A stretch of 64,000 nt of DNA from a virus (lineage: Duplodnaviria > Caudoviricetes), in IMG/VR virus record IMGVR_UViG_2565956925_000004, positions 6,955 through 70,954 of that record; one strand, 5' to 3'. The notes beneath the pieces were generated by a model. That model made no database searches. It saw only the letters and a program-made list of their open reading frames with translations, and had not been told where the DNA came from. Positions within the stretch are counted from its first letter, which is position 1. The number at the start of each line of letters is the position of its first letter. The translations under genes were made by a program, and so were the position numbers. Shown here piece by piece: positions 7,630 through 55,890 of the stretch.

Positions 7630-7694
7630 GGAACTTGCTTACGCTTTAAAATTTAAAAATTGCCAAAATGCCCTATATCAGTATAGGGCATTTT
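7630..7694 (+). promoter_or_regulatory. GGAAC-N30 element, copy 2
   Basis: GGAAC 7630-7634, AAAAT 7665-7669, 13-bp hairpin AAAATGCCCTATA-tcag-TATAGGGCATTTT before ATG 7700. Confidence 0.8.
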
Positions 7695-7699
7695 TTGTT

Positions 7700-9988
7700 A
7701 TGACAGATTCAAATCACAATAATCCAGTTTTATCTTATGATGAGCTTGGCTTTATCATTGGTATGAAACGAGTTGAAAAAAAAGTAAGTACGATTGATTC
7801 AAATATTGAAAAGATTATCGAAATTCTTACTCAAAGCTTTGAAGAGCAAAAAGCACAGTTTGCTAAGCCTCAGCCTAAACTGACTGAATTTCAAAAAATG
7901 CTTAATGCTGTCAATAATAGACCAGTATTAGACTTCGAAGATTTATTAAAAGAAAAAGCAAATCCAATCACACAGCCTTTTGTTGTAGCCGACAAGTTTG
8001 TGAAAGACTTTGCTGATGAATTAGAGCAATCAGTTAGTGACCTTAATTCAGCAAATAAAGAACGAATCAACCAGCCAAAGGTACAAAAGCCAGCTATAGA
8101 AATTAATAGTCATGAAGATTTGGGTAAGATCGTAAGTTCATCAACACCAGAACGTGATGAGAAAGGGCGTTTTGTTTCTAATCAAGAAGATGTTAAAAAC
8201 CAATCCGCTATTAGCAAAGTTGCACAAACTATTACCACGGCGGTAAAAGGTGTAATGCCGAACTCACCACAAGGTGTTGATCCTACAGTTGATGCAATAA
8301 ATGAAGTTAGTCACTTACTTTCACCTGTACGCCGTGCTGCTGGTTTAGCGATGCGACCATTAACAGGTTTTATGCGTAGTAGAAAACGGAATGAACCTTT
8401 ACCGCGAGAACAAGAAAATCATAACCGCAAACAAATAAAACTATTGCAGCGTATAGCTGATAATTTAGCGTCTAAAGGCGGTTTGCTTGGCTCTATAGGG
8501 AAATTACTTACTACAGCCCTATCAGCAGGCAGTGGGCTGTTAGGCGGTGCCTTAGGTAAAGGAAAGAAAGGTGTAGGGAAATTAGGAAAGGGCTTGGGTA
8601 AACTTCTCAAGTTTGGCCGTGGTCTACCCGTAATTGGTGCACTTGCTGCTGGTGCATCATTGTTAGATTGGAATGAACAAAGTACACAAGAAAAGGGCGG
8701 TACAGTTGGTAGTCTTGCTGGTGGGGTGATCGGCGGTACGGTAGGATCCATATTTGGTCCAGCTGGTACCTTGATTGGTGGTATGGCTGGATCTTGGATA
8801 GGTAACCAGCTTGGTACAGCAGTTGCGCCGTATTTTAAAGAGTGGACAGATTCATTAATAGCTGCAGATGTACCAGGTATTATTAATACTGCTTGGAAAG
8901 GATTTGTAAGTTATGCATCTAATGCTTTTGATCAGGCGAAAGGCACTGCTTCAAAAGTTGTAGATGGCGTTAAAGATACTGCTGGTGATACCTTAGATTT
9001 CATTAAAGATAAATTTAACAGATTTAATCCCTTTCATGACGGCGTTCCAACATGGGGAATCGGTCAAGGCGTTTATAAGCCGGGCTTTGGTGCAAATAAA
9101 AATGTACCTGCTTATGGATCAACTATTTCTCCAATTGGTGAAAAAACTAAGGAAAAGCAACTTGCAGTTTACAATGCTATGAAGAAAGCTGGTTTTAATG
9201 ATAATTGGGCTGCTGGTTTAACTGCTTCCGTTGGTCGAGAAAATGATTATCGAGATGAATATTTGTTTGGTAAACATCAAGATAAAGCTGGTGGAATAAA
9301 TATGGGAATGATTTCTTGGCAAGGAGCCCGTAAAGACCGGCTTACGGCATATATGAAGGAAAGGGGATTACTTGATGCAAACGGTAATATGGTACGGAGC
9401 CAAGCAGCTTTAGATGCACAAGGTGCATTTATGAAGCATGAAATCGAAACGAATCCAGAATATGCTTCAGTTAAAGCTTATATGCAAAAAAAACCAAATG
9501 CATCAAAAGAAGATATTGCCCGAGTTCTCGGCACAAAATATGTAAGATGGGCGTATGGGCAAACAAAGCTTCGCAATGGGAAGTCATTTGATTATAGACC
9601 GCATTTAGAAAAGGAATATAAATACAGAGCTAACATTGATAAAACTGTTCAGGAACAGAAAACAAATCTACCTAGAGAAAATACCCCAGCTGTATCAGGA
9701 TTGAAATCAAGTCATATTGTGGCCAATACAAAAGCTAAAGTTGCTAGTGTTTTAAGCACCCAAAAAGCTATCGTTCCCCAAGCTACTACAAAAGCAAAAC
9801 CTTCATTAAATAATCAAAGTAAATTATTAACTAATGTCACGCCGTTTAAGCAACCTTTAAATACTCCTAACCCACAGGAAGTTGTTGTTGTAAATCAGAA
9901 TAATGGTAACATCGGGCAGAATGTTAATGACCGTTTCCTTGCTCATGCACTTACTGGTGGCATTGGAATGTATAAGAATGAGGCTTAA
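7700..9988 (+). CDS. Tape-measure-like tail protein with phage tail lysozyme domain
   Basis: Gly/Ala-rich hydrophobic middle; AGLTASVGREND...GMISWQGARKDRL...QGAFMKHEI resembles the Phage_lysozyme2 family. Confidence 0.7.
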   Translation: MTDSNHNNPVLSYDELGFIIGMKRVEKKVSTIDSNIEKIIEILTQSFEEQKAQFAKPQPKLTEFQKMLNAVNNRPVLDFEDLLKEKANPITQPFVVADKFVKDFADELEQSVSDLNSANKERINQPKVQKPAIEINSHEDLGKIVSSSTPERDEKGRFVSNQEDVKNQSAISKVAQTITTAVKGVMPNSPQGVDPTVDAINEVSHLLSPVRRAAGLAMRPLTGFMRSRKRNEPLPREQENHNRKQIKLLQRIADNLASKGGLLGSIGKLLTTALSAGSGLLGGALGKGKKGVGKLGKGLGKLLKFGRGLPVIGALAAGASLLDWNEQSTQEKGGTVGSLAGGVIGGTVGSIFGPAGTLIGGMAGSWIGNQLGTAVAPYFKEWTDSLIAADVPGIINTAWKGFVSYASNAFDQAKGTASKVVDGVKDTAGDTLDFIKDKFNRFNPFHDGVPTWGIGQGVYKPGFGANKNVPAYGSTISPIGEKTKEKQLAVYNAMKKAGFNDNWAAGLTASVGRENDYRDEYLFGKHQDKAGGINMGMISWQGARKDRLTAYMKERGLLDANGNMVRSQAALDAQGAFMKHEIETNPEYASVKAYMQKKPNASKEDIARVLGTKYVRWAYGQTKLRNGKSFDYRPHLEKEYKYRANIDKTVQEQKTNLPRENTPAVSGLKSSHIVANTKAKVASVLSTQKAIVPQATTKAKPSLNNQSKLLTNVTPFKQPLNTPNPQEVVVVNQNNGNIGQNVNDRFLAHALTGGIGMYKNEA

Positions 9989-9990
9989 TC

Positions 9991-10515: not shown

Positions 10516-10530
10516 TAATCCCCTATAAGT

Positions 10531-10562
10531 AAAAGGGATTGAGTCAATCAATCCCTTTTTTT
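10531..10562. terminator. Bidirectional intrinsic terminator
   Basis: AAAAGGGATTGA-gtcaa-TCAATCCCTTTT between convergent genes. Confidence 0.8.
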
Positions 10563-10564
10563 AA

Positions 10565-11419: not shown

Positions 11420-11460
11420 AAGAAATTCTAAAGCAGTGAAAAGTTAAATAAATAATAATG

Positions 11461-11559
11461 AACCCCAGTGGGGTTGACAAGAGGGGGAGAGAATAATAAA
11501 TTTAAACCACCCCCAGTGGGGGTGACCCCGAGTAATCTTGCCGGATCGAACTCGGGGTC
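11461..11559 (+). promoter_or_regulatory. Antirepressor promoter with two palindromic operators and a leader hairpin
   Basis: AACCCCA-G-TGGGGTT (11461-11475) overlapping TTGACA (11474-11479); TAAATT 11497-11502; CACCCCCA-G-TGGGGGTG (11508-11524); hairpin GACCCCGAGT/ACTCGGGGTC (11524-11559). Confidence 0.75.
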
Positions 11560-11591
11560 TATCAAAAATCACATGAAAAAAGGATATTGAT

Positions 11592-15650: not shown

Positions 15651-15716
15651 TGGAACCTTTCTCATTTTGTTAGGTTAGGGAATATCAAAATAGCCTCATT
15701 GATAAGAGGTTATTTT
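15651..15716 (+). promoter_or_regulatory. GGAAC-N30 element, copy 3
   Basis: GGAAC 15652-15656, AAAAT 15687-15691, hairpin AAAATAGCCTC/GAGGTTATTTT holding the SD, ATG 15718. Confidence 0.8.
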
Positions 15717-15717
15717 C

Positions 15718-17034
15718 ATGGGCAGTCTTAATCTTGCAGCTGTAACAGCTACCACTCCATATATTAAAAAAATCCAATCTGCATTAGCAAAAGCAACAGG
15801 CCAAACTATCGTTACACCAGAGTTTCGAAAAATTAAACGCGTTGCTGGTGTCAGTGTTTTACCAGTTACTTTTTTCTTTTCTGGTGGTGCAACACTTACG
15901 CTTTATGTTCGTGCTTTAGCAGATGTGGTCAAGGCAGAACTTAATGAAAAAGTGATTGTGCTATCAGGTGATTTTAGTGATGACTATAAGCCAACTTTTG
16001 ATAATGCTGTTAATGGTGTAGCAAAGCTAATTCGTGAAGCACAATCACAGATTCAAGCTCAAAACAAACGTGAAAAAGTGCGTCTTCCTCCACGCCGTAC
16101 TTCAGTAGATCAAAAGGCTGTAGAGGTTGAAGAACAAGAACAAAAGCTTGATGAAGAATTAGTAAAACAAACGGCGCAACGGGATCAACTTTTGGAAAAA
16201 ATTGAACTAGCCAAACAGCAGCTTGGTAACAGTTCTATGACGGAGGCTGGTCAATCCGAATTGGGAAAGTCGATTAGTGAAATCGTATCAATTTCCACTG
16301 ATTCCAGCGCAAATATTTTCAAAGAAAATAAATTATCAAACCTTTCTGATACTGTAGAATTGACTATAGATAAGTCTATGAAGTGGAAGGACATAGTGTC
16401 GAAATATTTGGGAAGTGATCATCCACTTTCAATTGAAGAACAGGAAGAAATTGTTAAAGAATGGGTAAGTCAAAATGAATTAAGAATTCTAAAAAATGAT
16501 CTTTTAAACTCAGATGAGATTGTTAAAAAGTCAAAAGAATATGGTCTAACTTTACCAGAACAAATTGCAATTCGTTATTGGTCTGGAACAGGTTGTGGGG
16601 GAATTAATGGTGTTTTACATCGAACAATTCCTTATTCAAAAGAACAAGTTTTAATTGAGTTAAAAGGCATTTCTCTATTGCGACAAGCATTAGATAAATT
16701 GCCAAATTACAATGAGGAGGTCGTTTATTCGCGACAAGAATTACCTCAAAATTTACTTGAATCGATGCTGAATTATGAGACTTATATTACTGAAGGTTTT
16801 TTAGCAGCTAATAGACAATTTGACCTATTTTCTCAACGTAAAATTAGACTTATCATTCAATCCAAAACTGGAAAACACATTGAATGGATCAGTGAGAATT
16901 CCGATACAGAAGATGAAGTCTTGTTTAAAAATTCCACTTCGTTTAAAGTATTAAACATAGCAGATTCAACGACAGATGAATCTATTGAAATTGGTCATAT
17001 TTGGTTCTACTTAGAGGAGGATGATAATGAATAA
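15718..17034 (+). CDS. Hdf/DarA-N-like virion protein fused to an ADP-ribosyltransferase domain
   Basis: N-terminus K..RVAGVSVLPVTFFFSGGATLTLYVR..ADVVKAELN plus coiled coil resembles P1 Hdf/DarA-N; C-terminus AIRYW..INGVL..AL.KLP..VYSR..EGFL..GKHIEWIS...EDEVLF...FKV resembles VIP2/C3-type ART. Confidence 0.7.
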   Translation: MGSLNLAAVTATTPYIKKIQSALAKATGQTIVTPEFRKIKRVAGVSVLPVTFFFSGGATLTLYVRALADVVKAELNEKVIVLSGDFSDDYKPTFDNAVNGVAKLIREAQSQIQAQNKREKVRLPPRRTSVDQKAVEVEEQEQKLDEELVKQTAQRDQLLEKIELAKQQLGNSSMTEAGQSELGKSISEIVSISTDSSANIFKENKLSNLSDTVELTIDKSMKWKDIVSKYLGSDHPLSIEEQEEIVKEWVSQNELRILKNDLLNSDEIVKKSKEYGLTLPEQIAIRYWSGTGCGGINGVLHRTIPYSKEQVLIELKGISLLRQALDKLPNYNEEVVYSRQELPQNLLESMLNYETYITEGFLAANRQFDLFSQRKIRLIIQSKTGKHIEWISENSDTEDEVLFKNSTSFKVLNIADSTTDESIEIGHIWFYLEEDDNE

Positions 17035-17338: not shown

Positions 17339-17393
17339 AAGTTAGAGATTTTTTAAAATTAATAGACTGCTAGATTGCGGTCTTTTTTGTTTT

Positions 17394-17457
17394 GGAACCT
17401 TATAAATATCGAGAAGGTTCAAACAACTACTCTTATAAAAATCCAAATTAAGGGTAG
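17394..17457 (+). promoter_or_regulatory. GGAAC-N30 element, copy 4
   Basis: GGAAC 17394-17398, (T)ACTCT 17429-17433, hairpin CTACTCTTA/TAAGGGTAG, ATG 17462. Confidence 0.7.
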
Positions 17458-17461
17458 TACC

Positions 17462-17818
17462 ATGCAAATTCAAATCGGTATAGATATTGTCTTAATTCTT
17501 GCATTTTCTGCGTATCTTTATTTCATAACGGGGTGGAATGGCAAAAATAAAGCGGCATCAATAAAACAATTTCGCCAAATTCCAATTAACCTTTTATTTA
17601 AAGAAATAAGATGGATGTACTTCGCTTGCATGGCATGCGTAATGATCACAATTATTTTAGTTGATTGGCGAATCTATTACGTTGCTTGCTACTTTGATGC
17701 ATTAAGCGTTTCGCTTTGGATCTTTCTAATCTATTTTTCTATTTTTTCTACTTATCAAATTGGCACTGCAATTTTACTAAAGCTTTTGACTATTTTTAGC
17801 AATAGAGCAACTTCCTAA
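17462..17818 (+). CDS. Small membrane protein (3 TM)
   Basis: Hydrophobic ORF; ATG 17462 with AAGGG RBS preferred over the TTG start at 17375. Confidence 0.6.
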   Translation: MQIQIGIDIVLILAFSAYLYFITGWNGKNKAASIKQFRQIPINLLFKEIRWMYFACMACVMITIILVDWRIYYVACYFDALSVSLWIFLIYFSIFSTYQIGTAILLKLLTIFSNRATS

Positions 17819-20191: not shown

Positions 20192-20255
20192 GGAACTGTT
20201 TAGTTCGAGCTCAAAGACAAAATGATTTCATAGTCCTGTTCATTAGTTCAGGACT
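20192..20255 (+). promoter_or_regulatory. GGAAC element, copy 5 (spacer about 33)
   Basis: GGAAC 20192-20196, CATAGT 20229-20234, hairpin AGTCCTG/CAGGACT, ATG 20263. Confidence 0.65.
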
Positions 20256-20262
20256 TTTTTAT

Positions 20263-20721
20263 ATGCAACAAGCTCAAGAAAATGTTTTAGTAGGAATCGC
20301 AGAACCTATCAATGGTCAAGGAGAAAACTTATTAATTGATCATTTCTTAGGATATGCAAACCAAAAATTAGAACCACAAGAAATTGATAAAGTTGTAAAT
20401 GGGGAAGCGGTAGAGGGCATTACAGCTTATGCTCAAGGCCATTACTATAAGATTTCAGCAAATCCTGAAACTCAAAATGCAAAAGATTTTGAAATCAGTC
20501 TTCATTTTCAGGATGGCCCAATTCCAGAACATGGTGTGAATGGGGTGACCAGTGAAGCATTGTTAAAAGTACTTATTCACCGTACTAAAACCTTGGATGA
20601 AAAGTTCCCAAGTGAGTTCAACAAACAAGCAATCATTTATATGGAAAGTGCGTTAGAAGAGTTCAATAAGCGTACAGCTGAGCGCCGTGCTCGTGGTGTC
20701 GAAGGCACTCTTCTTAAGTAA
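20263..20721 (+). CDS. tad1: Tad1-like anti-defence sponge protein
   Basis: HYYKI...FQDGP...GVNGVTSEALL.VLI.R...F.S..N..AI..ME.AL...NKR..ER.ARGVEGT matches the Tad1 pattern. Confidence 0.7.
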   Translation: MQQAQENVLVGIAEPINGQGENLLIDHFLGYANQKLEPQEIDKVVNGEAVEGITAYAQGHYYKISANPETQNAKDFEISLHFQDGPIPEHGVNGVTSEALLKVLIHRTKTLDEKFPSEFNKQAIIYMESALEEFNKRTAERRARGVEGTLLK

Positions 20722-20963: not shown

Positions 20964-21028
20964 GGAACTGATTAAATTTCGACTATAGAACAATTGAAAC
21001 AATAGCCTCAATCACAGCATTGGGGCTT
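20964..21028 (+). promoter_or_regulatory. GGAAC-N30 element, copy 6
   Basis: GGAAC 20964-20968, ACAAT 20999-21003, hairpin AGCCTCAAT/ATTGGGGCT, ATG 21033. Confidence 0.8.
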
Positions 21029-21032
21029 TTTT

Positions 21033-21938
21033 ATGGCTAGCAAAAATAGAAAGACTAAAGTTCTCTCTTACAATCTACACGATCGGTGCCGTAAATATAC
21101 TGGTGTTGATCGAAGTAATGTCGATGTTGATGTAATGATCAACTTGATTAACAGTAATCATGTACAAGAAATGGTTGCAACTAACTCTTTACAAGGGTTT
21201 TACGGTCATCAAATTCGACAACGTTACGGTATGGTACCGCCTGAAACTGTTCCTATTAAAGGTAAATTGGTATATCTAGCCCCAGCGCTTAAAACAATTC
21301 AATTACGTGCTTCACAAGATGGGACTGTAGAGCATCAAGAAGAATTTTTTGACAATGAACCAGGTGAACTTGCATTAAGACAATATGCCGCACAAGCAGG
21401 TGGGTTCAGCACAGCAGTTAACTATAAGAGATTAGGTGGTCGTCTTATTCCTACTGGCTTTTTTGGTTTTGACTATGTGTCACAACCTAACTATGCAAGT
21501 AATGTAGGTGACGGTCAGTTATTTGATGGTTTATTTGTTCCTGAAGAACCAGAGGGTGTAATTTCTTGCTTTGATAGTGCAACAGATTTTTCTCAGTTAT
21601 CACAACCCGAAATTATCATTGCTCAATTACTTGAAGATCAAATCTTACAGACATACGACAATATCAATAGCCAGCTTCATCTTTTAAACGAGTTAGGAAA
21701 TGCTCAAGGGTTAGTAGGTGAACTATCTGAAGTAGTTGATAAGCAAAAACGAATACAACAACTTAGAGAAGAACGCAAAAAAGAACTCTATACGGGTATG
21801 GTAAATCCTGTGATGAGCTTTGATTCAGTTCAACAACAAGCTGAACAAATATTGCAATCCATGGATCAGCCAACCCTAAAAGAGAAATCTAAAAAACCAA
21901 AAAAATCTTTTGGCAATATTTTTAGCGTATGGGGGTAA
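21033..21938 (+). CDS. Prohead protease (P1 Pro-like)
   Basis: GFYGH..R, VEHQEEF..NEPG, AGGFS, F.GFDYV..PNY pattern shared with P1 Pro. Confidence 0.7.
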   Translation: MASKNRKTKVLSYNLHDRCRKYTGVDRSNVDVDVMINLINSNHVQEMVATNSLQGFYGHQIRQRYGMVPPETVPIKGKLVYLAPALKTIQLRASQDGTVEHQEEFFDNEPGELALRQYAAQAGGFSTAVNYKRLGGRLIPTGFFGFDYVSQPNYASNVGDGQLFDGLFVPEEPEGVISCFDSATDFSQLSQPEIIIAQLLEDQILQTYDNINSQLHLLNELGNAQGLVGELSEVVDKQKRIQQLREERKKELYTGMVNPVMSFDSVQQQAEQILQSMDQPTLKEKSKKPKKSFGNIFSVWG

Positions 21939-21940
21939 TA

Positions 21941-23480: not shown

Positions 23481-25493
23481 ATGGCTTTGGCACCATTAAA
23501 AGAAATTCCCGAATGGTGGGAACTTTGTGAGCGTTATCGATACGACATCTATGCTTTCGCCGTAGAAGCATTAGGTGTCGAACCCACATGGCAACAAGAA
23601 TTACTTTTTGAATCTATTGCATTTGATGGTAGTCGTACATCCGTAGCTTCAGGTCACGGTTGTTTTGGTAAAGGGACATTAATCAAATTATCCAATGGGG
23701 ACTTTATCCCAGTTGAGCGGATTAATTTAAATCACAAGATCCTTGCTGCTGATGGTAAAACAGAACTAGAGGTAATTAAAACAGTAACCGGTTATCAAGA
23801 AATGTACCGGTTTGAATATGAGAATGGTAAAGCTCATACCTTCAATAAATCCCACATACTTTGCTTAATTTCTTTATACGATGGTAACGGCTGGTCGAAG
23901 GGCGACAAGATTGAATTACTTGTTTCTCAATACCTGAACTTAAAGCCAGAAAATAGAGAACAGTTTGCATCTTATAGGCTTATAGATGGTGAACATAAGC
24001 CTTTAAAAATCACATCTGTTGCCGAGCTTGGTGAAGGCAAATATTACGGTTTTGTACTCGATCCAGATCCATTTTTCTTAGGTGAAGATGACTTAGTACT
24101 ACATAACACTGGTAAAACGGCCAGTGCCGGTATTGTTGCCTTATGGCATCTCTTGTTTTTTGATGAATCAATCATGATGTTTACTGCTCCGCAGATTGGG
24201 CAGTTAAAGAAACAAGTCTGGAAAGAAATCAGTATCAATCTAGCACGATTGAAGCAAGGCCCTTTGGCTTGGCTTGCTGATTATGTTGGGTACCAGTCTG
24301 AACTCGTTTACATCAAAGGCTACAAAGAAAAATGGTATGTCTTTGCTAAGACAGCACCAAAACATCAACCCACGAACTTAGCTGGTAACCACGGCGACAA
24401 CTATATGGTCTGGGTCGATGAGGCCAGCGGTGTAGATGATGCTGTACTTGATGTAGCGTTTGGTGCATTAACTCACGAAGACAACCGTGCTGTAATGACG
24501 TCGCAACCTACCCGTAATGCGGGTATGTTCTATGAGACTCATCACAAGTTAAGTCATCGAGCTGGGGGTGTTTGGATTGCACTCACATTTAACGGGGAAG
24601 AGTCACCACTTGTTAGTAAGCAATCTTTAGAAGAACAACGGCAAAAGTATGGAAGCCGAGAAGATGCTCAGTATAAGATCCGTGTTCTAGGTGAATTCCC
24701 AGACTTATCTGATGAGTTCTTAATTACTAAACGTCAAACAGAAGAAATGTATGTTGGCGCGAGTATTTTTGAGGATCATCAATTTGGTTATGTCATTACG
24801 GTAGACGTTGGTGGTGGTGTTGGCCGAGACGATTCTGTAATTGTTGTTTCTAAAGTTTGGGGTGAATCCCAATGGGGAGAACGTGCACGCCGTGTAGAGG
24901 TTGTAGATATACCTTTGTGCAAAAACAGAGATGATATCTTAGAACTATTCGCAAAGATTAATGAGCTACTTTTACAGTATCCAAATGCTAACTTGGTAGT
25001 AGATGACAACGGGGCAGGTAAAGGTTTAGGTCAGTATCTTAAAAAGCAAGGTATTTTCTACGTTCCTGTTTATTGGGGCTCACAATGTTTTAGTAATGAC
25101 AATAGAAAAGAGTTTACGAATAAACGGTCGTTAGCTTATGTGGGCTTAGCACGAGCAATCGCTAGTGGTCGTTTTAAAATGAAAACGAAGAAACACAACG
25201 TGAAAATTAAAGACCAATTAATTCACGTTCCATACCGTTTTGATGACTTTGCACGTTACAAAATCTTGAGTAAAGATGAAATGAAACGAATGGGAATTAA
25301 GTCGCCAGACTTGGGTGATGCTTTTGCCTTCTTATTCCTTGAGAACGTTCATTACACAGAAGCTTATGAAACAGTCAATGTTACAGATGATACCCCTGAA
25401 GGCCGAGAACAGGCAGAACGTAAGTCAAGATTCAGTGCTTTAAGAGATGCAGCTGAAAAAGATAATGATCAATCTAGTGGAACTGACCAGTAA
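23481..25493 (+). CDS. terL: Terminase large subunit (P1 PacB-like) containing an intein
   Basis: SGHG|...|TGKT P-loop, VWVDEASG Walker B, VDVGGG..DDS nuclease, SPDLGDA C-terminal motif. Confidence 0.9.
   Translation: MALAPLKEIPEWWELCERYRYDIYAFAVEALGVEPTWQQELLFESIAFDGSRTSVASGHGCFGKGTLIKLSNGDFIPVERINLNHKILAADGKTELEVIKTVTGYQEMYRFEYENGKAHTFNKSHILCLISLYDGNGWSKGDKIELLVSQYLNLKPENREQFASYRLIDGEHKPLKITSVAELGEGKYYGFVLDPDPFFLGEDDLVLHNTGKTASAGIVALWHLLFFDESIMMFTAPQIGQLKKQVWKEISINLARLKQGPLAWLADYVGYQSELVYIKGYKEKWYVFAKTAPKHQPTNLAGNHGDNYMVWVDEASGVDDAVLDVAFGALTHEDNRAVMTSQPTRNAGMFYETHHKLSHRAGGVWIALTFNGEESPLVSKQSLEEQRQKYGSREDAQYKIRVLGEFPDLSDEFLITKRQTEEMYVGASIFEDHQFGYVITVDVGGGVGRDDSVIVVSKVWGESQWGERARRVEVVDIPLCKNRDDILELFAKINELLLQYPNANLVVDDNGAGKGLGQYLKKQGIFYVPVYWGSQCFSNDNRKEFTNKRSLAYVGLARAIASGRFKMKTKKHNVKIKDQLIHVPYRFDDFARYKILSKDEMKRMGIKSPDLGDAFAFLFLENVHYTEAYETVNVTDDTPEGREQAERKSRFSALRDAAEKDNDQSSGTDQ
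23661..24107 (+). mobile_element. Mini-intein (149 aa, no homing endonuclease) in the terminase P-loop
   Basis: Starts CFGKGT, ends YYGF.LD....FFL..D.LVLHN followed by Thr; removing it restores SGHGTGKT. Confidence 0.92.
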
Positions 25494-25544
25494 TACTGCA
25501 TGAAGCCATAACTACTATAGATCAATAAATCTTATGGGTGGGTT
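25479..25544 (+). promoter_or_regulatory. GGAAC-N30 element, copy 7 (inside terminase 3' end)
   Basis: GGAAC 25479-25483, (T)ACTAT 25514-25518, ATG 25545. Confidence 0.7.
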
Positions 25545-27083
25545 ATGGCTATTAACTTCTTTTTAACTGACGCAGGTCGGAATGCATTAAATAAAGTGGG
25601 TGATGTCGCTAGTTTTGGTGGGGAGCTGACACATCTTGCTGTAGGTACTAGTAAATTTGATGCATCAGTTGAAGCAAAGAACTTAACTTCACTTAAAAAT
25701 GAATTAGCCAGATTTTCTCTTAACGGTGGTGGTGTAGATACTGAAACAGGCACTTTGCGTTTTGTGATGAGTATTGAGCCAACTTTAACAATGGAAGTGT
25801 TTGAGATGGGTATATACCTATCAGATGGCACTTTGCTTGCTGTAGCTTCAACTACAGAAGCTCAATCAATCATGTCTTTACATGCAAACGTAGTAGCCAT
25901 TGTTACATTCGGATTTGTTTTAACTGACGTTAATTTAAAAAACGTAACTATCAAGATTGATCCAAACACACCAATTGCTGTGATGTTGATGAATCAGCAT
26001 AGTGCAGATGAAGACCCACACCCACAATACGCTGCATTAATCCGTAAACTTATGACTGAACACAATCAGCATGAGGATCCTCACCCCCAATATGCATTTG
26101 AGAAGGACGTAAAAGCCAAAGACGATGATTTACAACATCAGATTGATGATCTAGATCTTGGTTCCAAAAACTTATTACAGCAGCTAATCGATTTTAAGAA
26201 AAACTTAGATGCTCAATATCCAAAATTGATTGGAGCAGGTGTAAATATTGGTAGCACTGCAACAATTGAATTAGGTGGCAAAGTTACTGATTTACGTGAT
26301 TCAAAGTATGCAATCTATTTAACTCCAGAAAGTTCACATGAAGCTTGGGAGCTTACACGTGCGGAAAAAGGGTTCTCATATAAAGTTTGGGAGCGCTCAG
26401 GGCAAAACCGTATTGGATATGCAGGCACAGTGAATTGGTCAGTTATTCAGGTTGCTGCAGAAACACTAAACGATGGAAACGGCGATTACACAGTACCAGG
26501 TGTTTATATCATTCCAATTCAACCTAAAGAACAAAAAGAATTCATTTTAGTGGGTGCTGGCGGTGCTGGCGGTGGCAGTGTATGGGAGTTAGGAGCAATG
26601 GCTCATGGGACCAATGGTACAGATACACGCTTACGTTTAAATGAGCTCGATTTGGCGGTTGTTGGTGGGGGTAAAGGCGGTACAAGTGGTCAGTGGTCGA
26701 ATGGTAGTGCTTTCTCAAATGGTGCTGGCGGTTTAGCTGGAACAATTACTATCACATCTAGTATTACAGAGCTTTCAAGAAAATTAGGTATTGCTGGTAC
26801 AGCTGCAAACCAATTGAATCACATGGGCGGTGCATCTGTAAGTCCAGTATCAAACTGGGGTGCAGGTGGGGATGGTGCTAATGGTGTAGGAGATGACGGC
26901 TGGGCACTTGGTGGTGGTGGTGCAAGTGGTGGTTTACTCATTTGCCGATATTCTAATTCAACCGAAAAAACTCAGTACATGACTTTAGTTGTCGGCGAAG
27001 CTGGTCACACTACTGAAAGTAACGGCAACAGCGGTAAAGCGGGTATTGGTGGCTTTGCGCGTGTAAGTACTGTTAAAGCTTAA
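25545..27083 (+). CDS. Tail fibre/collar protein with Gly-rich C-terminal domain
   Basis: LTDAGR..L, E.GIYL.DGTLLAV collar domain; two H..DPHPQY repeats; GAGGAGG Gly-rich domain. Confidence 0.8.
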   Translation: MAINFFLTDAGRNALNKVGDVASFGGELTHLAVGTSKFDASVEAKNLTSLKNELARFSLNGGGVDTETGTLRFVMSIEPTLTMEVFEMGIYLSDGTLLAVASTTEAQSIMSLHANVVAIVTFGFVLTDVNLKNVTIKIDPNTPIAVMLMNQHSADEDPHPQYAALIRKLMTEHNQHEDPHPQYAFEKDVKAKDDDLQHQIDDLDLGSKNLLQQLIDFKKNLDAQYPKLIGAGVNIGSTATIELGGKVTDLRDSKYAIYLTPESSHEAWELTRAEKGFSYKVWERSGQNRIGYAGTVNWSVIQVAAETLNDGNGDYTVPGVYIIPIQPKEQKEFILVGAGGAGGGSVWELGAMAHGTNGTDTRLRLNELDLAVVGGGKGGTSGQWSNGSAFSNGAGGLAGTITITSSITELSRKLGIAGTAANQLNHMGGASVSPVSNWGAGGDGANGVGDDGWALGGGGASGGLLICRYSNSTEKTQYMTLVVGEAGHTTESNGNSGKAGIGGFARVSTVKA

Positions 27084-30248: not shown

Positions 30249-30314
30249 TCACACAGCAAACCTAAAGACCGCTAAGCCAAAACTAGCCCTATTCACAACG
30301 AATAGGGCTTTTTT

Positions 30315-31032: not shown

Positions 31033-31108
31033 CTATATAAATAAAGGGCTGCGATGGTCCTTTAGCTACATTTTCTTTGTCCTCATTCTTGGGGACTTTT
31101 TTATATTT

Positions 31109-31186
31109 GGAACCGACCAGAATAAGTAAAAATGGCTCATGTCAGACTTTCTTCAACTTACATCGCAAGCCAAAGGCTGGTTTAAA
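31109..31186 (+). promoter_or_regulatory. GGAAC-N30 element, copy 8
   Basis: GGAAC 31109-31113, (C)AGACT 31144-31148, ATG 31187. Confidence 0.7.
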
Positions 31187-33943: not shown

Positions 33944-33989
33944 GAATTTGATTATTTTGAAAACCACTTCCGAGTGGTTTTTTTACATT

Positions 33990-34062
33990 GGAACTAGCCA
34001 GAAAATTTAATAAGCCCACAGCTCAAAATACTTAAAACAAATAGCCTTGGGCGTGTAATGTA
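33990..34062 (+). promoter_or_regulatory. GGAAC-N30 element, copy 9
   Basis: Terminator 33961-33984, then GGAAC 33990-33994, AAAAT 34025-34029. Confidence 0.75.
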
Positions 34063-36485: not shown

Positions 36486-36527
36486 AAAGAAATAAACAAA
36501 GCTACCCATTAAGGTGGCTTTTTTAAT

Positions 36528-36598
36528 GGAACCAAACAACTTTGAAAGGGTTTTAACCTTTTACTCTTGATGCATATAAAAGCTATAGAGCATCAAGA
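36528..36598 (+). promoter_or_regulatory. GGAAC-N30 element, copy 10
   Basis: GGAAC 36528-36532, (T)ACTCT 36563-36567, hairpin TCTTGATGC/GCATCAAGA, ATG 36601. Confidence 0.8.
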
Positions 36599-36600
36599 TC

Positions 36601-37248
36601 ATGCAACAATCTAACCCGATTTTACTTAACCAGCTTAAACAAGATTATATTGCCTTACAGCAACTTGGGTCCCCCTTATTAGCGTGTCAAGGAATGTTTG
36701 TACCTCGTGGCATGGAAGACCTTCGCTTTTTATTTAAAAGTTGCCCACGGCCGATTGTGAGTAATGAAGATCCAGCAGAAGTTCAATATGCGGGTGGTTT
36801 TACTGGAATTGTTGCTGGTCCACCGAAAACCCATTACACAGGCAACCTTCAAATCCTAGTAACTGAAGCTGGGCATGATCAACTATTAGCTGAATATGTC
36901 GTAGCTAGTGGTGGAATCATCCATGGTGATTACTACGATGGCCGATTAGGAAGTTTTACCCGCTCATATGCACTTGAAAACTGTGCTATTCGTTTTGAAT
37001 CAGCTGAATACGATTCTGATAGCCGATCACAAGTAATGACAGTTTCTTGCCCAATTGATTACAACTACTTTGGTAGTTTCGCAAACATTGGTACCAACGG
37101 TAGTATTCAGCCGGGTAAAAAAGAAATTGATGGTACAGCTGAGCTTGTTAATCGAGTTCAGCAAGTGATCAATACTGCTCAACAAGCAACTAATCTTGCA
37201 AATGCTGTGCAAGGCGTTGGTCGTCAACTGGGCAATCTATTTGGGTAA
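36601..37248 (+). CDS. Putative tail tube protein
   Basis: Beta-rich; size and position ahead of the baseplate hub/spike genes. Confidence 0.55.
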   Translation: MQQSNPILLNQLKQDYIALQQLGSPLLACQGMFVPRGMEDLRFLFKSCPRPIVSNEDPAEVQYAGGFTGIVAGPPKTHYTGNLQILVTEAGHDQLLAEYVVASGGIIHGDYYDGRLGSFTRSYALENCAIRFESAEYDSDSRSQVMTVSCPIDYNYFGSFANIGTNGSIQPGKKEIDGTAELVNRVQQVINTAQQATNLANAVQGVGRQLGNLFG

Positions 37249-50377: not shown

Positions 50378-50417
50378 GAGCTTTTCCTCTAAAACAGATT
50401 AAAAAATATGTGCAGAT

Positions 50418-50530
50418 AGAATTGCATGCTGTGGATTTATTGAATCTGTACGGTTCCAATTAACTTTGGAACCAATCTAATAGTTAAAAAATGGTAGCCA
50501 TCAAAATACTTAATTATTTAAGTATTTTGG
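50418..50530. promoter_or_regulatory. Divergent pair of GGAAC-N30 elements (copies 11 and 12)
   Basis: GGTTCCAA-ttaact-TTGGAACC (GTTCC 50453-50457; GGAAC 50468-50472); + strand AAAAT 50503-50507 with hairpin CAAAATACTTAA/TTAAGTATTTTG. Confidence 0.8.
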
Positions 50531-50537
50531 CTTAGTT

Positions 50538-52073
50538 ATGTCTTCTCGGTTCTTATCGTTGTTACTCGGTGAAAATGTTAATTCATATGATCAGCAATTT
50601 GATACCTCTAATCAGGATGCTACGGCGCAGCTTTATGAATCCATGGCACCGTTTTCACTTGGGACCAATCAAACTAAAGCCAATAAGAAGCGTACTCGAA
50701 AGGAAATTTTCACCAAATGGGAGAGAATGTTACGCTTTGCCCCAATCGCTGAGGGTATGGGGATTCATGTTTCTGCAGCTTTAGGCGGAGATTCTTATAG
50801 CGGCCAACAAGTGTTTATTACACCAGCACAACGTTTGAAAAAGGCAAATGGCCCAGCAGCTGAAAAAATAAAAAAACAGCTAGATGAACGCCGTGATGTC
50901 ATGGAAAAGCTGATCAATAAGTATTTAAGTAAGCTTGCCCGAGATGCGATTTCATTTGGCGATTCTTATGCCCGAATTTATGGGAAAAAAGAGAGTGGAG
51001 TAATTGACCTCCTTTGTAATGAGTATACTTATCCGCCATTAATACAGCCATTCGAACAGGGCAGTAAAACTGTCGCATTTTTTTGCTTAGATCCCCGAAA
51101 TTGGCAGAAAACTATTACCAAACTAAATACTATTCAAATGGTACGTTTCAAAATGCCCCGTATGAGCAATATTGCTCAATATGAACTTGTTGAAACTGGC
51201 CTTGTAACTAAAATGTTAGAAGGAGATGACCCAGATGAATTACCGATTTTACCAGCGCATTTAGGTGGTTCATTTCTATACGAAATTGAAGAAGTTTATG
51301 ATGATGTGATTCTTGCATTGGCATCTATGAACAGCCAGCAGATTGCAGATACAGTAAATCAGATGTTCTTGACGGTAAATATGTCTGGAATGCCGCCAGC
51401 ACAACGCCAAGCCTATGTTCGGGGTTTAGAAGGTTTACTTAAAAATCATGAGACATATGTTCGTGATGCTTTATCAGATGGCGAAGCCGTTTGGAATACT
51501 GCTTTTCACATGCTGCCAGTATTTGATGAGAAGCAAGTTCTAAATCCTGTTGGTGATATCAAACTTCAAAGAAGCTCACCTATTAATATTGAACAATTCA
51601 TGATTAATGTCCGTTTGTTAATGGGCGGGATAGGTCTAGACCCAAGTATGGTAGGGTGGGCTGACATGTTAACTGGTGGTATTGGTGAAGGCGGAGCGTT
51701 CCATACTTCAGCGCAAATAATGCGTAGGTCACAAGACATTCGTACAGCAGTAACTGAAGGGATTAATCAGATTCTTCATTTGGATTGGGGATTTGCATTT
51801 AATGAACAATTTGAGCCTAAAGATTATCCTTGGCAAGTTGAATATTATACAAACCAAACTGCAGCAGCTACTGAAGAAATCAGTAATGCCCAATCTAGAA
51901 TGAATACAACACTACTTAAAACCCAAGTGATTGCCGCTTTAAAGGAGACAAACTTAGATGTAGAAACTATGGCCTATATTCTAGAGCGCGATGCAGGTAT
52001 GAAATATGATGAAGCTCAATTATTAGCTGAAAGTATTTTTAAGAGCCGTAAATTTTCTGAGGATGAAGAATAA
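50538..52073 (+). CDS. Portal protein (P1 Prt-like)
   Basis: 511 aa; LARDAISFGDSYARIYG..GV, GGSFL..IE, GIGLDPSMVGWADML.GG.GEGG.F.TS. Confidence 0.7.
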   Translation: MSSRFLSLLLGENVNSYDQQFDTSNQDATAQLYESMAPFSLGTNQTKANKKRTRKEIFTKWERMLRFAPIAEGMGIHVSAALGGDSYSGQQVFITPAQRLKKANGPAAEKIKKQLDERRDVMEKLINKYLSKLARDAISFGDSYARIYGKKESGVIDLLCNEYTYPPLIQPFEQGSKTVAFFCLDPRNWQKTITKLNTIQMVRFKMPRMSNIAQYELVETGLVTKMLEGDDPDELPILPAHLGGSFLYEIEEVYDDVILALASMNSQQIADTVNQMFLTVNMSGMPPAQRQAYVRGLEGLLKNHETYVRDALSDGEAVWNTAFHMLPVFDEKQVLNPVGDIKLQRSSPINIEQFMINVRLLMGGIGLDPSMVGWADMLTGGIGEGGAFHTSAQIMRRSQDIRTAVTEGINQILHLDWGFAFNEQFEPKDYPWQVEYYTNQTAAATEEISNAQSRMNTTLLKTQVIAALKETNLDVETMAYILERDAGMKYDEAQLLAESIFKSRKFSEDEE

Positions 52074-52726: not shown

Positions 52727-52731
52727 GCTAT

Positions 52732-52794
52732 GGAACTCATTGGCTTTTTACATTCAATAGATTGAGAAAATATCCTCAAATTAAAATGAGGATA
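52732..52794 (+). promoter_or_regulatory. GGAAC-N30 element, copy 13
   Basis: GGAAC 52732-52736, AAAAT 52767-52771, hairpin TATCCTCA/TGAGGATA holding the SD, GTG 52800. Confidence 0.8.
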
Positions 52795-52799
52795 ACTCC

Positions 52800-54314
52800 G
52801 TGAGTGTTAAATCAATTTTTACTCAAACACATGCACCACATCAAAGCCGATTAGTACCTGGTTTTGATTCAATGGTGAATAGTGGCGCTTGTTCAATTGG
52901 ATTTATTAAAGGTGATTACCGTCAAATTAATGCCTTAGTCACTGAAGACTACACGGAAAATGACCTCTGGCGAGTGATTAACTTAAAAGGGCAGAAGAGC
53001 GGAATCGAAGCTTATGATTCAGTTGCCATACTTGGTGCAATTGATGATCAGCATGCTGGTGAACTAGCAATCTTACAGTTTGGACGCATGTTTGACGCTT
53101 GTGTTACAGATGTAATTGAAACAAATCAATTTGGTCTTAAACGCCACCTATCTTCCAAACAATTTAATTTGTCTGGGTCTAAACCAATTCAAAGATGGCA
53201 ATTAGAGAAATTACAGAACGTGATTGCTGCAGAAACACCTCAATGGGATGGTATCAGTTTAGTTTCTCATGATGGTGATACAGCAAAACTTCTTTTAGAT
53301 ATGCAGCGAAATGATGACCATAGTCAGCTGCTAAGTAAATTTGATGGGTTGCCTACGCTATTATCTAGTCTGGAAGTAGAAGAAGCTCATTATGATTCTA
53401 TTATTGTCGATTACCAGCATTTAGAGCAGCTGTCTGCTATTTTGCATCACGCTATGGATCAGTTTTCTAAAACTGGTGTTAAAGTCATTAACGTTACTGA
53501 AAGTAAGCCCTTCAAGCATAAAAAAGTACTTCAAATTGCGCTTACTTATGATTTTGATGACGGTCAAAACTTCACAATCCTTTTTCATAAGCCAGATCGA
53601 TTTTCAAAGAAAATTAGTTCTGCAGATTCATTAATTTCATGGAAGATCTTAATGAACAATCGCGATATTACAGCTGCAATTCAGCCTAATCAGGGAGAAG
53701 GAATTTCAATTCCTGTTCTCGCTGGTCGAATCATGAAGTTAATTAACCAAAATAGTAATCGTTTTAAACGCTTACAAGCTAAAAAAGCCGAAAAAGCTAA
53801 AGCTTTGGCTGAAGCGGAAAATCGGGTTTTGGAAAAGCAGAGTTTATTGGCATCTTTAAAGCAAGAAATAGAAAGTTTGCAATCTGAATTAGATAATTTA
53901 GCTATTTCCAAAAGTAAACCGACACCAGAAGTGACACCTGAACCGGCACCGGAGGTGACACCTGAACCAGCACCAGAGGTGACGCCTGAACCGGCACCAG
54001 AGCCGACACCAGAAGTGACACCTGAGCCAACACCAGAAGTGACACCTGAACCGGCACCAGAGGTGACACCTGAACCAGCACCAGAGGTGACGCCTGAACC
54101 AGCACCAGAGGTGACACCTGAAGAACTACAAAATCTATCAGCTTCGGATACTTCAAATCCTTTGTATAAGTCAATCATTGAAGGACAAGTAGGCGTAAGT
54201 TTGGAAGTACTAGAACAAGTTCGAGATGAGGCTGAGAAGAATTTAGAAGACCCTTTATTAATTCCAGCTGTAACTGAGTTGCTTAACCAAATTAAAGTTA
54301 AGGAGAGCGTTTAA
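52800..54314 (+). CDS. darA: DarA-like defence-against-restriction virion protein
   Basis: F.DGQ..TI.FH.P....KI...D.L..W..L.N.RDIT..I.P..G..I....LA.RI.KL...NS..F DarA-N pattern; coiled coil; Pro-rich linker. Confidence 0.7.
   Translation: MSVKSIFTQTHAPHQSRLVPGFDSMVNSGACSIGFIKGDYRQINALVTEDYTENDLWRVINLKGQKSGIEAYDSVAILGAIDDQHAGELAILQFGRMFDACVTDVIETNQFGLKRHLSSKQFNLSGSKPIQRWQLEKLQNVIAAETPQWDGISLVSHDGDTAKLLLDMQRNDDHSQLLSKFDGLPTLLSSLEVEEAHYDSIIVDYQHLEQLSAILHHAMDQFSKTGVKVINVTESKPFKHKKVLQIALTYDFDDGQNFTILFHKPDRFSKKISSADSLISWKILMNNRDITAAIQPNQGEGISIPVLAGRIMKLINQNSNRFKRLQAKKAEKAKALAEAENRVLEKQSLLASLKQEIESLQSELDNLAISKSKPTPEVTPEPAPEVTPEPAPEVTPEPAPEPTPEVTPEPTPEVTPEPAPEVTPEPAPEVTPEPAPEVTPEELQNLSASDTSNPLYKSIIEGQVGVSLEVLEQVRDEAEKNLEDPLLIPAVTELLNQIKVKESV
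53919..54122 (+). repeat. 17 x 12-bp tandem repeat encoding (P/V)(T/A)PE
   Basis: PTPE/VTPE/PAPE units read directly. Confidence 0.95.
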
Positions 54315-55822
54315 TGTTACTTAAATTTATTACGCCTTCTGTAATAGCTACGGACCCTTTGATTGTAATTGATCAAATGATTAGTTTCTTTAAACCAACG
54401 AAGTCCTTAACAGGGCTTTTACGGGGCAGAACTAATAATGTTAAGACAGCCAAAGGGGAAAAGATTTCTACTGTCTTCGCCTTAGTCGATATTGATCAAG
54501 TCATTGCGTCTCATACGGCGACAGGTGCAGAAAACCCAAACTATCCTCAAGAATTACAACCGCGAGATCGTAGCCGTGAATCATCACAAGCATGGGTACA
54601 TAAAACCGCTAATGATTTAGATCCCGAAAGCCTTGGCCGCTCAGGGCGGGCAGATACAGGAGCACCGATAACTGGAGACGATTTAGTTGTGGAGTCAGGA
54701 AACGGTCGAACCATGGCAATCAAGCTTGCATATGAGCAGGGCACCGCAGATGAGTATAAACAATGGTTAATTGATGAAGCCGATTACTTTGGTTTTAGTT
54801 CTGAGCAAGTACAGGCCATTTCTAAACCAATATTGATACGTATTCGTACCACTGAGATTGATAGAGCACAATTTGCTATTGATGCAAACCAAGATGATAA
54901 GTTGTCATTTACAGCTACAGAACGAGCTAAAGCTGATGCTAAACGATTAGATGATAATTTACTGGCTCTTTTTAACCCGAGTGAAGACGGTGATTTATTA
55001 GCAGTAAGTAATCAAAAGTTTATTCAAGGTTTTTTGACTAAATTAGGTGATACGGAAGCAGCCCAGTACACCACGAAAGATAAAAAACCAACACAAGCAC
55101 TGATAAACAGAATCAAGGCCGCAATTTTTAGTAAAGCGTACAATGATGATCGTTTGCTAGAAATGATGGCTGATCATACAAAACCAGATCTTCAAAACAT
55201 GCTTAATGCGTTGGGTGTTGCTGCGCCTAAATTTATTGAAGCACAAGCTATAAGTCGTGGAAATGTTCAAGATATATCGGATCAAATCGTTGAAGGTATG
55301 GAGCAAGCCATTGATCAACGTGTTGCTAATGCAATTATTGATGCAGCAAATACCATTTTATCTGCAAAGCAAAATGATCAAGATATTGTTGAGTTTGTAA
55401 AGCAGCAAGGGCTTTTTGAGGATCTAGGGGAAGGTGTTGCTGAGCTCGCCGTGTTTCTCGCCAAGAATAGCCGCAGTTCAAAAAAAATGAGTATGTTATT
55501 TAAAGCTTTAGCTGAATTTGCAGAGAAACAGGCTATAGTTAGCAGTAATGTAGGTTTGTTTGGTGAGCCTGAACCAGTAAGTGTCAAAGATGCTATCCAA
55601 TATGCACAACAAGTGCTTGGTGATGATTTCATTAGTGTGCAAATGTACGATTCTTTGATTGAGTCTAGTAGCTCATGTAGATCTAAAATAATTCGATTAA
55701 CCAGAGAAGGGGCCGAACGTTTCCACAATGCTTTGAAAATTAAAATTACTCAAGTTGATGACATTGAAAAAACAGAAGTGAACAAAATTAATGACATTCT
55801 TTTCGAAGGGTTAGATATTTAG
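54314..55822 (+). CDS. ddrB: DdrB-like ParB-superfamily protein
   Basis: NP.YPQELQPRDRSR...L.SGRAD.GAPI..D.VVESGNGRTMA; downstream of darA as in P1. Confidence 0.75.
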   Translation: MLLKFITPSVIATDPLIVIDQMISFFKPTKSLTGLLRGRTNNVKTAKGEKISTVFALVDIDQVIASHTATGAENPNYPQELQPRDRSRESSQAWVHKTANDLDPESLGRSGRADTGAPITGDDLVVESGNGRTMAIKLAYEQGTADEYKQWLIDEADYFGFSSEQVQAISKPILIRIRTTEIDRAQFAIDANQDDKLSFTATERAKADAKRLDDNLLALFNPSEDGDLLAVSNQKFIQGFLTKLGDTEAAQYTTKDKKPTQALINRIKAAIFSKAYNDDRLLEMMADHTKPDLQNMLNALGVAAPKFIEAQAISRGNVQDISDQIVEGMEQAIDQRVANAIIDAANTILSAKQNDQDIVEFVKQQGLFEDLGEGVAELAVFLAKNSRSSKKMSMLFKALAEFAEKQAIVSSNVGLFGEPEPVSVKDAIQYAQQVLGDDFISVQMYDSLIESSSSCRSKIIRLTREGAERFHNALKIKITQVDDIEKTEVNKINDILFEGLDI

Positions 55823-55826
55823 TTCT

Positions 55827-55890
55827 GGAACCTACTCAAAATTAAGTACTTACGATCATTCAACATAGGAATATAAAGTTCCTATGTTGA
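55827..55890 (+). promoter_or_regulatory. GGAAC-N30 element, copy 14
   Basis: GGAAC 55827-55831, (C)AACAT 55862-55866, 12-bp hairpin TCAACATAGGAA/TTCCTATGTTGA, ATG 55898. Confidence 0.75.

Follow-up and report, generated by a model that had tools for sequence, protein, structure and literature searches.

The window analysed here is a stretch of 64,000 nucleotides (nt), bases 6955-70954 of the 70,954-base virus record IMGVR_UViG_2565956925_000004. It belongs to a P1-like temperate Acinetobacter myophage whose closest named relative is vB_AbaM_ABMM1 (hereafter ABMM1; OQ471969; 87% identity across 5.4 kb of the window), a 75.7-kb temperate myophage carrying an integrase, repressors, antirepressors and toxin-antitoxin genes. 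The G+C content of the window is 36.7% and its + strand carries almost all genes. Pfam and PHROG assignments delineate a morphogenesis and lysis region with a DarA_N protein, a PmgG-like head protein, a tail lysozyme and a terminase with an intein-like Hint region. Both resources identify the 3501-aa open reading frame (ORF) as a tail spike/fibre protein and, for this reason, its reading as an N4-like virion RNA polymerase with hairpin promoters was rejected. Morons, including genes for a TIR protein and P22-AR-type antirepressors, are scattered on both strands. Rfam 15 at gathering threshold gave no match in the whole window, and a tRNA scan of the window found none. The present study deals with fifteen candidate late promoters of this region and with the inverted repeats that, at nine of them, extend from the -10 box to the vicinity of the start codon (Table 1).

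A two-part candidate late promoter

The fifteen candidate promoters comprise T-GGAAC, a 29-nt spacer (32 nt at 20192 and 30 nt at 61014) and a -10-like nAnnnT box. The GGAAC pentamer by itself is not enriched in the window (85 matches vs 75 +/- 8 expected). The composite GGAAC-N30-A-NNN-T occurs 23 times where 7.7 +/- 2.7 occurrences are expected (about 3-fold), a number reached by none of 100 shuffles. Twenty of these 23 matches are on the + strand and 12 directly precede + strand genes.

Upstream regions of orthologous genes were taken from 305 related loci and thinned, by requiring more than 10 differences between 29-nt spacers, to a non-redundant set of 49 promoter variants. The information profile of this set displays four features only, T-GGAAC, A36 (89%), T40 (82%) and A47 (70%), corresponding to a TGGAAC-N29-CAAAAT(A) consensus. 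A36 and T40 correspond to -11 and -7, the diagnostic bases of sigma70-type -10 hexamers, and A47 to the expected +1, while positions 6-34 carry about 0-0.5 bit. Weak conservation is also seen at positions 43-46, because a CCTC/CCCT-type sequence complementary to the Shine-Dalgarno (SD) motif (anti-SD) lies in the 5' arm of the hairpins just downstream of the -10 box. A promoter recognised by an extracytoplasmic function (ECF) sigma factor, with GGAAC as the -35 element, was considered and rejected: no conserved -10 element is found at a 16-17-nt spacing, and the lack of conservation there (positions 20-30, about 0-0.24 bit) implies that GGAAC is not a -35 element. From its location around -46 to -42, GGAAC most likely binds a phage activator. 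Moreover, the -10 box holds the N29 spacing at hairpin-free sites and is therefore not a by-product of the stem.

The same motif is found in the 85-kb prophage G001, which shares about 50% protein identity with the window, with 22 forward vs 1 reverse matches (controls, 2 and 3). Provided that the predicted starts are right, the motif is the late promoter of a widespread A. baumannii prophage group. A further copy, GGAAC-N29-GAGAAT, lies at 38269-38308 within gene 37691-38584, 325 nt upstream of the 3501-aa tail fibre gene; it is kept in ABMM1 (16284) and may be an internal promoter.

Hairpins spanning the predicted transcription starts

Regions were folded from GGAAC to just past the start codon, and a dominant hairpin was obtained at nine sites. 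These are the nine inverted repeats listed in a first-pass annotation of the window, all of them lying where it had placed them or within 1-3 nt. Free energies (dG) and z scores were computed for the segment that begins 3 nt ahead of the -10 box and stops at the start codon, z being relative to 200 dinucleotide shuffles. Minimum free energies range from -10.3 to -17.7 kcal/mol and z scores from -2.9 to -5.9; a second folding run on three of the hairpins gave z scores of -4.5, -5.7 and -3.7. In the 42 nt before the start codon, dG values of -10 or below are found for 9/14 promoter genes vs 4/35 other + strand genes (Fisher p = 4e-4). The first-pass annotation had attributed such hairpins to most GGAAC elements and to nearly every late operon. 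The former wording is fair (9/15 promoters), but the latter goes too far, six of the fifteen promoters being devoid of a strong hairpin.

The register between hairpin and promoter is fixed. As had been proposed, all nine 5' arms include a -10-like box or directly follow one. The hexamer starts from 6 nt before to 2 nt after the first base of this arm; the predicted start, 7 nt past the hexamer, coincides with one of the final bases of the arm or with the first loop base, and 1-7 nt separate the 3' arm from the start codon. Among the 49 non-redundant promoters, 34 have a dG of -8 or below. In these 34, the median positions are 33-48 for the 5' arm, 53-67.5 for the 3' arm and 70 for the ATG, and in 29 of them the 5' arm does not reach beyond position 49 (+3). 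Loop length is free, from 4 to 13 nt.

A recognisable SD motif (AGGG, GAGG, AAGGG, AGGA, GGGG, GAGGA or GAGGG) is present in the 3' arm at seven of the nine sites. The claim that the 3' arm contains or abuts the SD thus stands for these seven and fails at 36528 and 50468, where there is no clear SD. In the larger set, an SD is recognised in 30 of the 34 strong hairpins, with at least 3 of its 4 nt in the 3' arm for 27 of these 30. Its partner in the 5' arm is the CCTC/CCCT-type anti-SD. The arms had been described as different in sequence between copies; the stems do differ, but an A-rich -10 part and, frequently, a CCTC/CCCT core are common to them.

A tail was scored as T-rich when 5 or more of the 8 nt beyond the final G/C of the stem core were T; by this measure, 4/9 window hairpins (7630, 15652, 20192 and 20964) and 21/34 non-redundant ones have a T-rich tail. 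It is absent at 52732, 55827, 17394 and 36528 and weak at 50468. A consensus terminator scan picked up 7665-7694, 21004-21027 and, on the opposite strand, 52794-52771. This raises the possibility that the hairpins are simply intrinsic terminators or 3'-end stabilisers of the preceding units, compacted against the next promoter, in which case their overlap with the SD and the -10 box would be incidental and devoid of translational control. The T-rich tails argue for this possibility, and 20232-20255 and 21004-21027 are the sole terminator-like elements between consecutive late operons; in addition, a terminator at 30285-30309 abuts a start codon without any GGAAC promoter. However, five hairpins without a U-run (17394, 36528, 50468, 52732 and 55827) are equally stable and well placed, and at two of them (17394 and 36528) another terminator precedes GGAAC. 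Furthermore, a terminator does not need the fixed register to the -10 box (5' arm ending at or before +3 in 29/34), and the promoter would precede its own terminator unless initiation took place inside the stem. Termination as the only function is, in our opinion, rather unlikely.

Comparison of long and start-initiated leaders, a check put forward with the initial annotation, gave a clear result in silico. Leaders cut at the predicted start are unstructured at all nine sites (dG -0.4 to -5.2, z about 0). The mean unpaired probability of the -16..-4 region rises at 9/9 sites, from 0.10-0.40 in the full leader to 0.38-0.74 in the cut leader (for instance, 0.11 to 0.54 at 7630 and 0.10 to 0.47 at 55827). 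The postulated translational lock is thus plausible, the SD region being predicted to be freed in the cut leaders; judging from the T-rich tails, the hairpins are equally likely to be terminators. Alternatively, late transcripts may start further upstream and contain the hairpin, which would then serve as a 5' stabiliser, as a translational throttle or as an attenuator opened by a phage antiterminator or an RNA-binding activator. Indeed, the start position was derived from the motif, not from mapped 5' ends, a promoter followed by a hairpin and a U-run resembles attenuator or antitermination layouts, and the short leader at 55827 keeps a small residual stem (-5.2). Two raw RNA runs contained no phage reads and the RNA-library contigs were long, giving no evidence either way on starts. 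Against an upstream start, TGGAAC, about 30 nt off, is the only conserved element upstream of the stem (positions 6-34 being nearly devoid of information), and the only -10-like signal (A36, T40) lies in or abuts the 5' arm and persists where promoters lack a hairpin. The sequence differences between stems also make a shared RNA-binding factor unlikely. Hairpins retained in the late mRNAs therefore appear improbable to us.

At three hairpin-free promoters (31109, 33990 and 62859), GGAAC is directly preceded by a conventional terminator, and both devices, hairpin and separate terminator, are present at 17394 and 36528. This argues for insulation from upstream transcription as the common purpose. 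At 31109, the longest ORF of the head vertex/portal-region gene starts from 31139, yet the -10 box CAGACT (31143-31148) is inside this ORF. The ABMM1 annotation puts the start of the gene 16 codons downstream of 31139, and the true start is probably ATG 31187.

Table 1. Candidate late promoters of the window, their hairpins and neighbouring terminators. The last column gives the unique 53-nt leaders at orthologous sites with dG of -10 or below (kcal/mol).
Feature	Position	Strand	Elements	dG; z	Leaders
Composite 1	7630..7702	+	GGAAC 7630-7634; -10 CAAAAT 7664-7669; predicted +1 ~7676; ATG 7700, tail lysozyme gene		13/13
Hairpin 1	7665-7677/7682-7694	+	13 bp, loop TCAG, then TTGTT; SD AGGG in 3' arm; T6 tail, terminator-like	-16.3; -4.5	
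Composite 2	15652..15720	+	GGAAC 15652-15656; -10 CAAAAT 15686-15691; predicted +1 ~15698; ATG 15718		19/21
Hairpin 2	15687-15697/15706-15716	+	then C; SD GAGG in 3' arm; tail TTATTTTC	-12.1; -4.9	
Ordinary terminator	17364-17383	+	just upstream of composite 3 GGAAC		
Composite 3	17394..17464	+	GGAAC 17394-17398; -10 TACTCT 17428-17433; predicted +1 ~17440; ATG 17462		11/13
Hairpin 3	17426-17435/17449-17458	+	then ACC; SD AAGGG in 3' arm; no U-run	-10.6; -4.2	
Composite 4	20192..20265	+	GGAAC 20192-20196; -10-like CATAGT 20229-20234 (32-nt spacer); predicted +1 ~20241; ATG 20263		4/4
Hairpin 4	20232-20241/20246-20255	+	core AGTCCTG/CAGGACT, then TTTTTAT; SD AGGA in 3' arm; terminator-like	-10.6; -4.5	
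Composite 5	20964..21035	+	GGAAC 20964-20968; -10 AACAAT 20998-21003; predicted +1 ~21010; ATG 21033		5/5
Hairpin 5	21004-21012/21019-21027	+	then TTTTT; SD GGGG in 3' arm; terminator-like	-11.2; -2.9	
Ordinary terminator	36500-36524	+	upstream of composite 6 GGAAC		
Composite 6	36528..36603	+	GGAAC 36528-36532; -10 TACTCT 36562-36567; predicted +1 ~36574; ATG 36601, tail tube		4/21
Hairpin 6	36565-36578/36584-36598	+	then TC; no clear SD; no U-run	-13.4; -3.4	
Composite 7	50468..50540	+	GGAAC 50468-50472; -10 CAAAAT 50502-50507; predicted +1 ~50514; ATG 50538		10/13
Hairpin 7	50501-50513/50518-50530	+	then CTTAGTT; no clear SD; U-run only weak	-11.8; -5.9	
Composite 8	52732..52802	+	GGAAC 52732-52736; -10 GAAAAT 52766-52771; predicted +1 ~52778; GTG 52800, DarA_N protein		12/15
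Hairpin 8	core 52771-52778/52787-52794 within 52764-52798	+	then TAACTCC; SD GAGGA in 3' arm; no U-run	-10.3; -3.7 to -4.7	
Composite 9	55827..55900	+	GGAAC 55827-55831; -10 CAACAT 55861-55866; predicted +1 ~55873; ATG 55898		4/4
Hairpin 9	55859-55872/55878-55891	+	then GGATAT; SD GAGGG straddles 3'-arm end; no U-run	-17.7; -5.7	
Promoter-like site	4981..5055	+	GGAAC-N29-AATAAT before RusA/HTH/275-aa operon; AT-only stem, not significant	-6.1; -1.8	
Promoter without strong hairpin	25479..25547	+	GGAAC-N29-TACTAT in last codons of terminase gene, before ATG 25545; weak stem	-6.2; -1.5	
Promoter without strong hairpin	31079..31189	+	terminator 31079-31096 and T-run; GGAAC 31109-31113, N29, CAGACT; no significant hairpin	z +0.6	
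Promoter without strong hairpin	33962..34065	+	terminator 33962-33984; GGAAC 33990-33994, N29, CAAAAT; ATG 34063 (sheath); weak long-range pairing around -10	z -0.1	
Promoter without strong hairpin	61014..61087	+	GGAAC-N30-GATAAT before PmgG-like gene; no hairpin in window copy		3/4
Promoter without strong hairpin	62817..62930	+	terminator 62817-62843; GGAAC 62859-62863, N29, AAAAAT; ATG 62928 (holin in ABMM1); no hairpin	z +1.1	

Recurrence of the layout in related prophages

About 80 related prophages show the same layout with different stems. Between relatives, mosaic exchange has often replaced the whole sequence ahead of the hairpin, whereas GGAAC, its 29-nt distance to the -10 box, that box and a hairpin persist. 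All 13 unique relatives reach dG values of -14.6 or below at 7630 and all four reach -20 or below at 55827; the hairpin is also kept in 4/4 unique relatives at 20192. In two alignments, 97% (7630) and 94% (15652, 18 distinct relatives with unrelated spacers) of cells are paired, vs 33-67% when the partner is slid by 1-3 columns. Pairing-preserving changes were observed at 7630 (C-G to U-A with two wobble changes in L272) and at 52732, where variants include T-A to A-T (L008) and U-G. Orthologues of 17394 use two different stems, the second of which has a T6 tail. Those of 61014 have three unrelated hairpins, strong and mutually different in 3/4 unique relatives. The covariation anticipated by the first-pass annotation is thus seen in part: the layout recurs with different stems, but covariation within a site is weak. 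Because the alignments (A1 and A2) are too close in sequence for classical covariation, we relied on the recurrence of the layout with unrelated stems.

The more distant prophage G001 provides stronger support than within-site covariation. Five of its 18 TGGAAC promoters with an ORF have unrelated stems that stretch between the -10 box and the start codon and in most cases are accompanied by a T-run (dG of -8 or below, z of -2 or below), and a sixth, at 55485, reaches a dG of -14.3 when folded with the right start codon. The layout at 20964 is the same at the orthologous sites of G001 (31168) and L301, and the G001 site orthologous to 50468 has an unrelated stem followed by T7.

Inverted repeats located between -10 and +20, a common repressor-binding region, might also act as DNA, either as operators for a dimeric repressor or as cruciforms modulating promoter opening. 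In this respect, the orthologues of 17426-17458 in the close relatives L106 and L119 differ by an exact reverse complementation of the loop and inner stem (...AATACAGTTCTTATT... vs ...AATAAGAACTGTATT...). Such a change is characteristic of an inversion mediated by the hairpin in the DNA and indicates that the palindrome forms DNA secondary structure at least occasionally. However, there is no common operator, because arm sequences differ between sites, and loop length is not constrained. Moreover, the + strand fold is better than that of the reverse complement in 75 vs 23 unique variants (and at 7/9 sites of the window), and G-U pairs number 105 on the sense strand vs 47 on the complement, as if such pairs were tolerated only in the sense RNA. 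A function at the DNA level is consequently very improbable.

A possible insulator and its known counterparts

Several findings were computed directly: the motif itself, the hairpins and the fixed register they keep, the return of this layout with other stems, and the disappearance of structure once the leader is shortened. From these we infer a transcription start, an activator, termination and translational silencing, which could be combined as follows. Each late transcription unit would start at its own two-part promoter made of T-GGAAC (about -47 to -42), the presumed binding site of a late activator encoded by the phage, and of a sigma70-type -10 box, mostly CAAAAT, with no -35 element. 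At nine of about 15 promoters, the -10/discriminator region, often with a CCTC-like anti-SD, would be the 5' arm of a hairpin with its loop at about +1, the 3' arm being the 20-27-nt leader with the SD, often then a U-run. RNA coming from upstream (lysogen-expressed morons, the early/middle operon or the preceding late operon) would hold both arms and fold; it would terminate where a U-run is present and otherwise have its ribosome site occluded. RNA initiated at the promoter would begin at the top of the 5' arm, with no fold, no termination and a free ribosome site. The hairpins would therefore be insulators combining a terminator and a ribosome-site lock, with the start inside the stem, and would tie the expression of each late block to its own promoter. 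We estimate the probability of this reading at about 60%. As about half of the hairpins are terminator-like, the lock would be transcriptional as well as translational. No terminator is found between the 50468, 52732 and 55827 units, so that read-through late RNA would also be locked and these blocks may depend on their own promoter even late in infection.

It should, however, be noted that several observations weigh against such insulators. The start was placed from the conserved A/T pattern alone. Strong hairpins are missing from six of the 15 window promoters (4981, 25479, 31109, 33990, 61014 and 62859), one of which belongs to the holin gene (62859), where a lock like that of T4 gene e would matter most. 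At 15652 and 50468, little upstream sense RNA is expected because reverse-strand genes precede. Four non-promoter genes (22904, 30315, 37691 and 49132) also have strong upstream structures, those of 30315 and 49132 being ordinary terminators of the preceding gene; the hairpin at 30285-30309 indicates that an SD can overlap a terminator without any promoter logic. As regards conservation, only 4/21 leaders are strongly folded at 36528, and only 5/18 G001 promoters pass the thresholds given above. L150 and L300-L302 keep the promoter with hairpins that are weak or absent (few or none pass). As to classical covariation, A1 and A2 each contain a single base pair altered on both sides, and 9/500 and 58/500 shuffles, respectively, score as high as the real alignments. 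Finally, site 52732 is more stable on the minus strand.

On a larger scale, it is conceivable, at slightly less than even odds, that the whole late regulon is wired for promoter-licensed expression. About 35 nt would then encode the -10 box, the anti-SD, the start, the leader, the SD and often a terminator, and each structural block would be transcribed onward and translated only from RNA of its own activator-dependent promoter. If so, read-through from the many lysogen-expressed morons would be harmless, and the ratios of virion proteins would be set promoter by promoter, not by operon polarity. The silence of virion and lysis genes in a mosaic prophage full of lysogen-expressed morons would also be explained. 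If the predicted starts are right, terminator, promoter and ribosome-site lock would form a compact natural insulator of about 70 nt, reused across the regulon with interchangeable stems. Natural variants are at hand for testing the T4 gene e principle outside T4, and design rules for synthetic insulated expression cassettes could be derived from them.

In bacteriophage T4, genes soc and 49 share a design in which the late promoter is in a hairpin. The T4 precedent invoked by the first-pass annotation is genuine: according to a review, in genes e and I-TevI a helix occludes the SD or the AUG on long transcripts from upstream promoters, the promoter box is in the DNA of the 5' strand of this helix, and transcripts begun there lack that strand and are translated (PMC3014915). 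In the window, similarly, an SD-like tetramer is in the 3' arm at seven of the nine sites and the predicted promoter box is in or next to the 5' arm. Because leaders cut at the predicted start are unstructured, a T4-like reading of the hairpins is plausible. Several differences should nevertheless be underlined. T4 is virulent, and its device, found at a handful of individual genes, relies on the gp55 late promoter TATAAATA, which lacks an upstream site; the sites studied here do not belong to this promoter class, since their TGGAAC-N29-CAAAAT(A) consensus differs. The present phage, studied from sequence alone, is temperate and P1-like; its promoter reads TGGAAC-N29-nAnnnT, the hairpins occupy 9 of the roughly 15 promoters in a single regulon, and about half of them also resemble intrinsic terminators. 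The hairpin promoters would thus work like the T4 device, by analogy and without homology to it. The design is known from single T4 genes; its use across a regulon, as is probable here, would be new.

Other systems share part of these features. In the fold-back inhibition of IS10/Tn10, a segment of read-through RNA pairs with the translation start region, and RNA from the element's own promoter lacks this segment. Unlike here, a single transposase gene is concerned, and there is no terminator part, no regulon and no activator-dependent promoter. Intrinsic terminators resemble the hairpins at 7630, 15652, 20192 and 20964 in having a G+C-containing stem then a U-run. They differ in that, here, the promoter of the next unit precedes the stem and extends into it, the SD of the next gene is in the 3' arm and five of the nine hairpins have no U-run. 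In phage P1, Lpa-dependent late promoters consist of a -10 box and a conserved element near -22. P1 and the present phage are both temperate myophages with DarA- and PmgG-like genes in common, and late promoters with a -10 box but no -35 element, dependent on an activator that is a presumed one here, would be scattered in large numbers over both genomes; the upstream element, TGGAAC at about -44, differs in position from that of P1. To our knowledge, promoter-spanning hairpins have not been reported for phage P1. A literature search found no paper describing the motif or these hairpins in Acinetobacter phages; in the available part of the ABMM1 paper, the words "promoter" and "terminator" do not occur and "transcription" appears in gene annotation only.

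Just upstream of the first late gene, a 228-aa XRE-type helix-turn-helix (HTH) gene (5743-6429) adjoins a 275-aa gene (6443-7270) whose family is unassigned. The same two genes are side by side in G001 (21013-22544; 38% and 43% identity), which shares the TGGAAC regulon, and their products are candidate late activators. PDB sequence searches gave nothing useful, and no homologue was found in L300-L304, which are short loci only.

Other features of the window can be mentioned. The hairpin at 30285-30309, before ATG 30315, has 10-11 bp, a T6 run and AGGG in its 3' arm, and follows an AT-rich membrane-protein moron absent from ABMM1; gene 30315-30671 may be silenced or differently controlled. A Hom_end-associated Hint match (residues 61-124) in the terminase large subunit (23481-25493) suggests an intein or an intein remnant. 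Between the replication genes and the RusA operon, the reverse-strand gene 3373-4863 encodes a 496-aa protein with an N-terminal TIR/SEFIR domain and is probably a prophage-borne defence gene. Finally, region 11461-11528 contains two G+C-rich hairpins (CCCCAGTGGGG and CCACCCCCAGTGGGGGTG) and a sigma70-like promoter with 10/12 matches (11474-11502). Flanked by a reverse-strand gene on one side and by the antirepressor-like gene 11592-12500 on the other, it may be a divergent regulatory region of lysogen-expressed morons.

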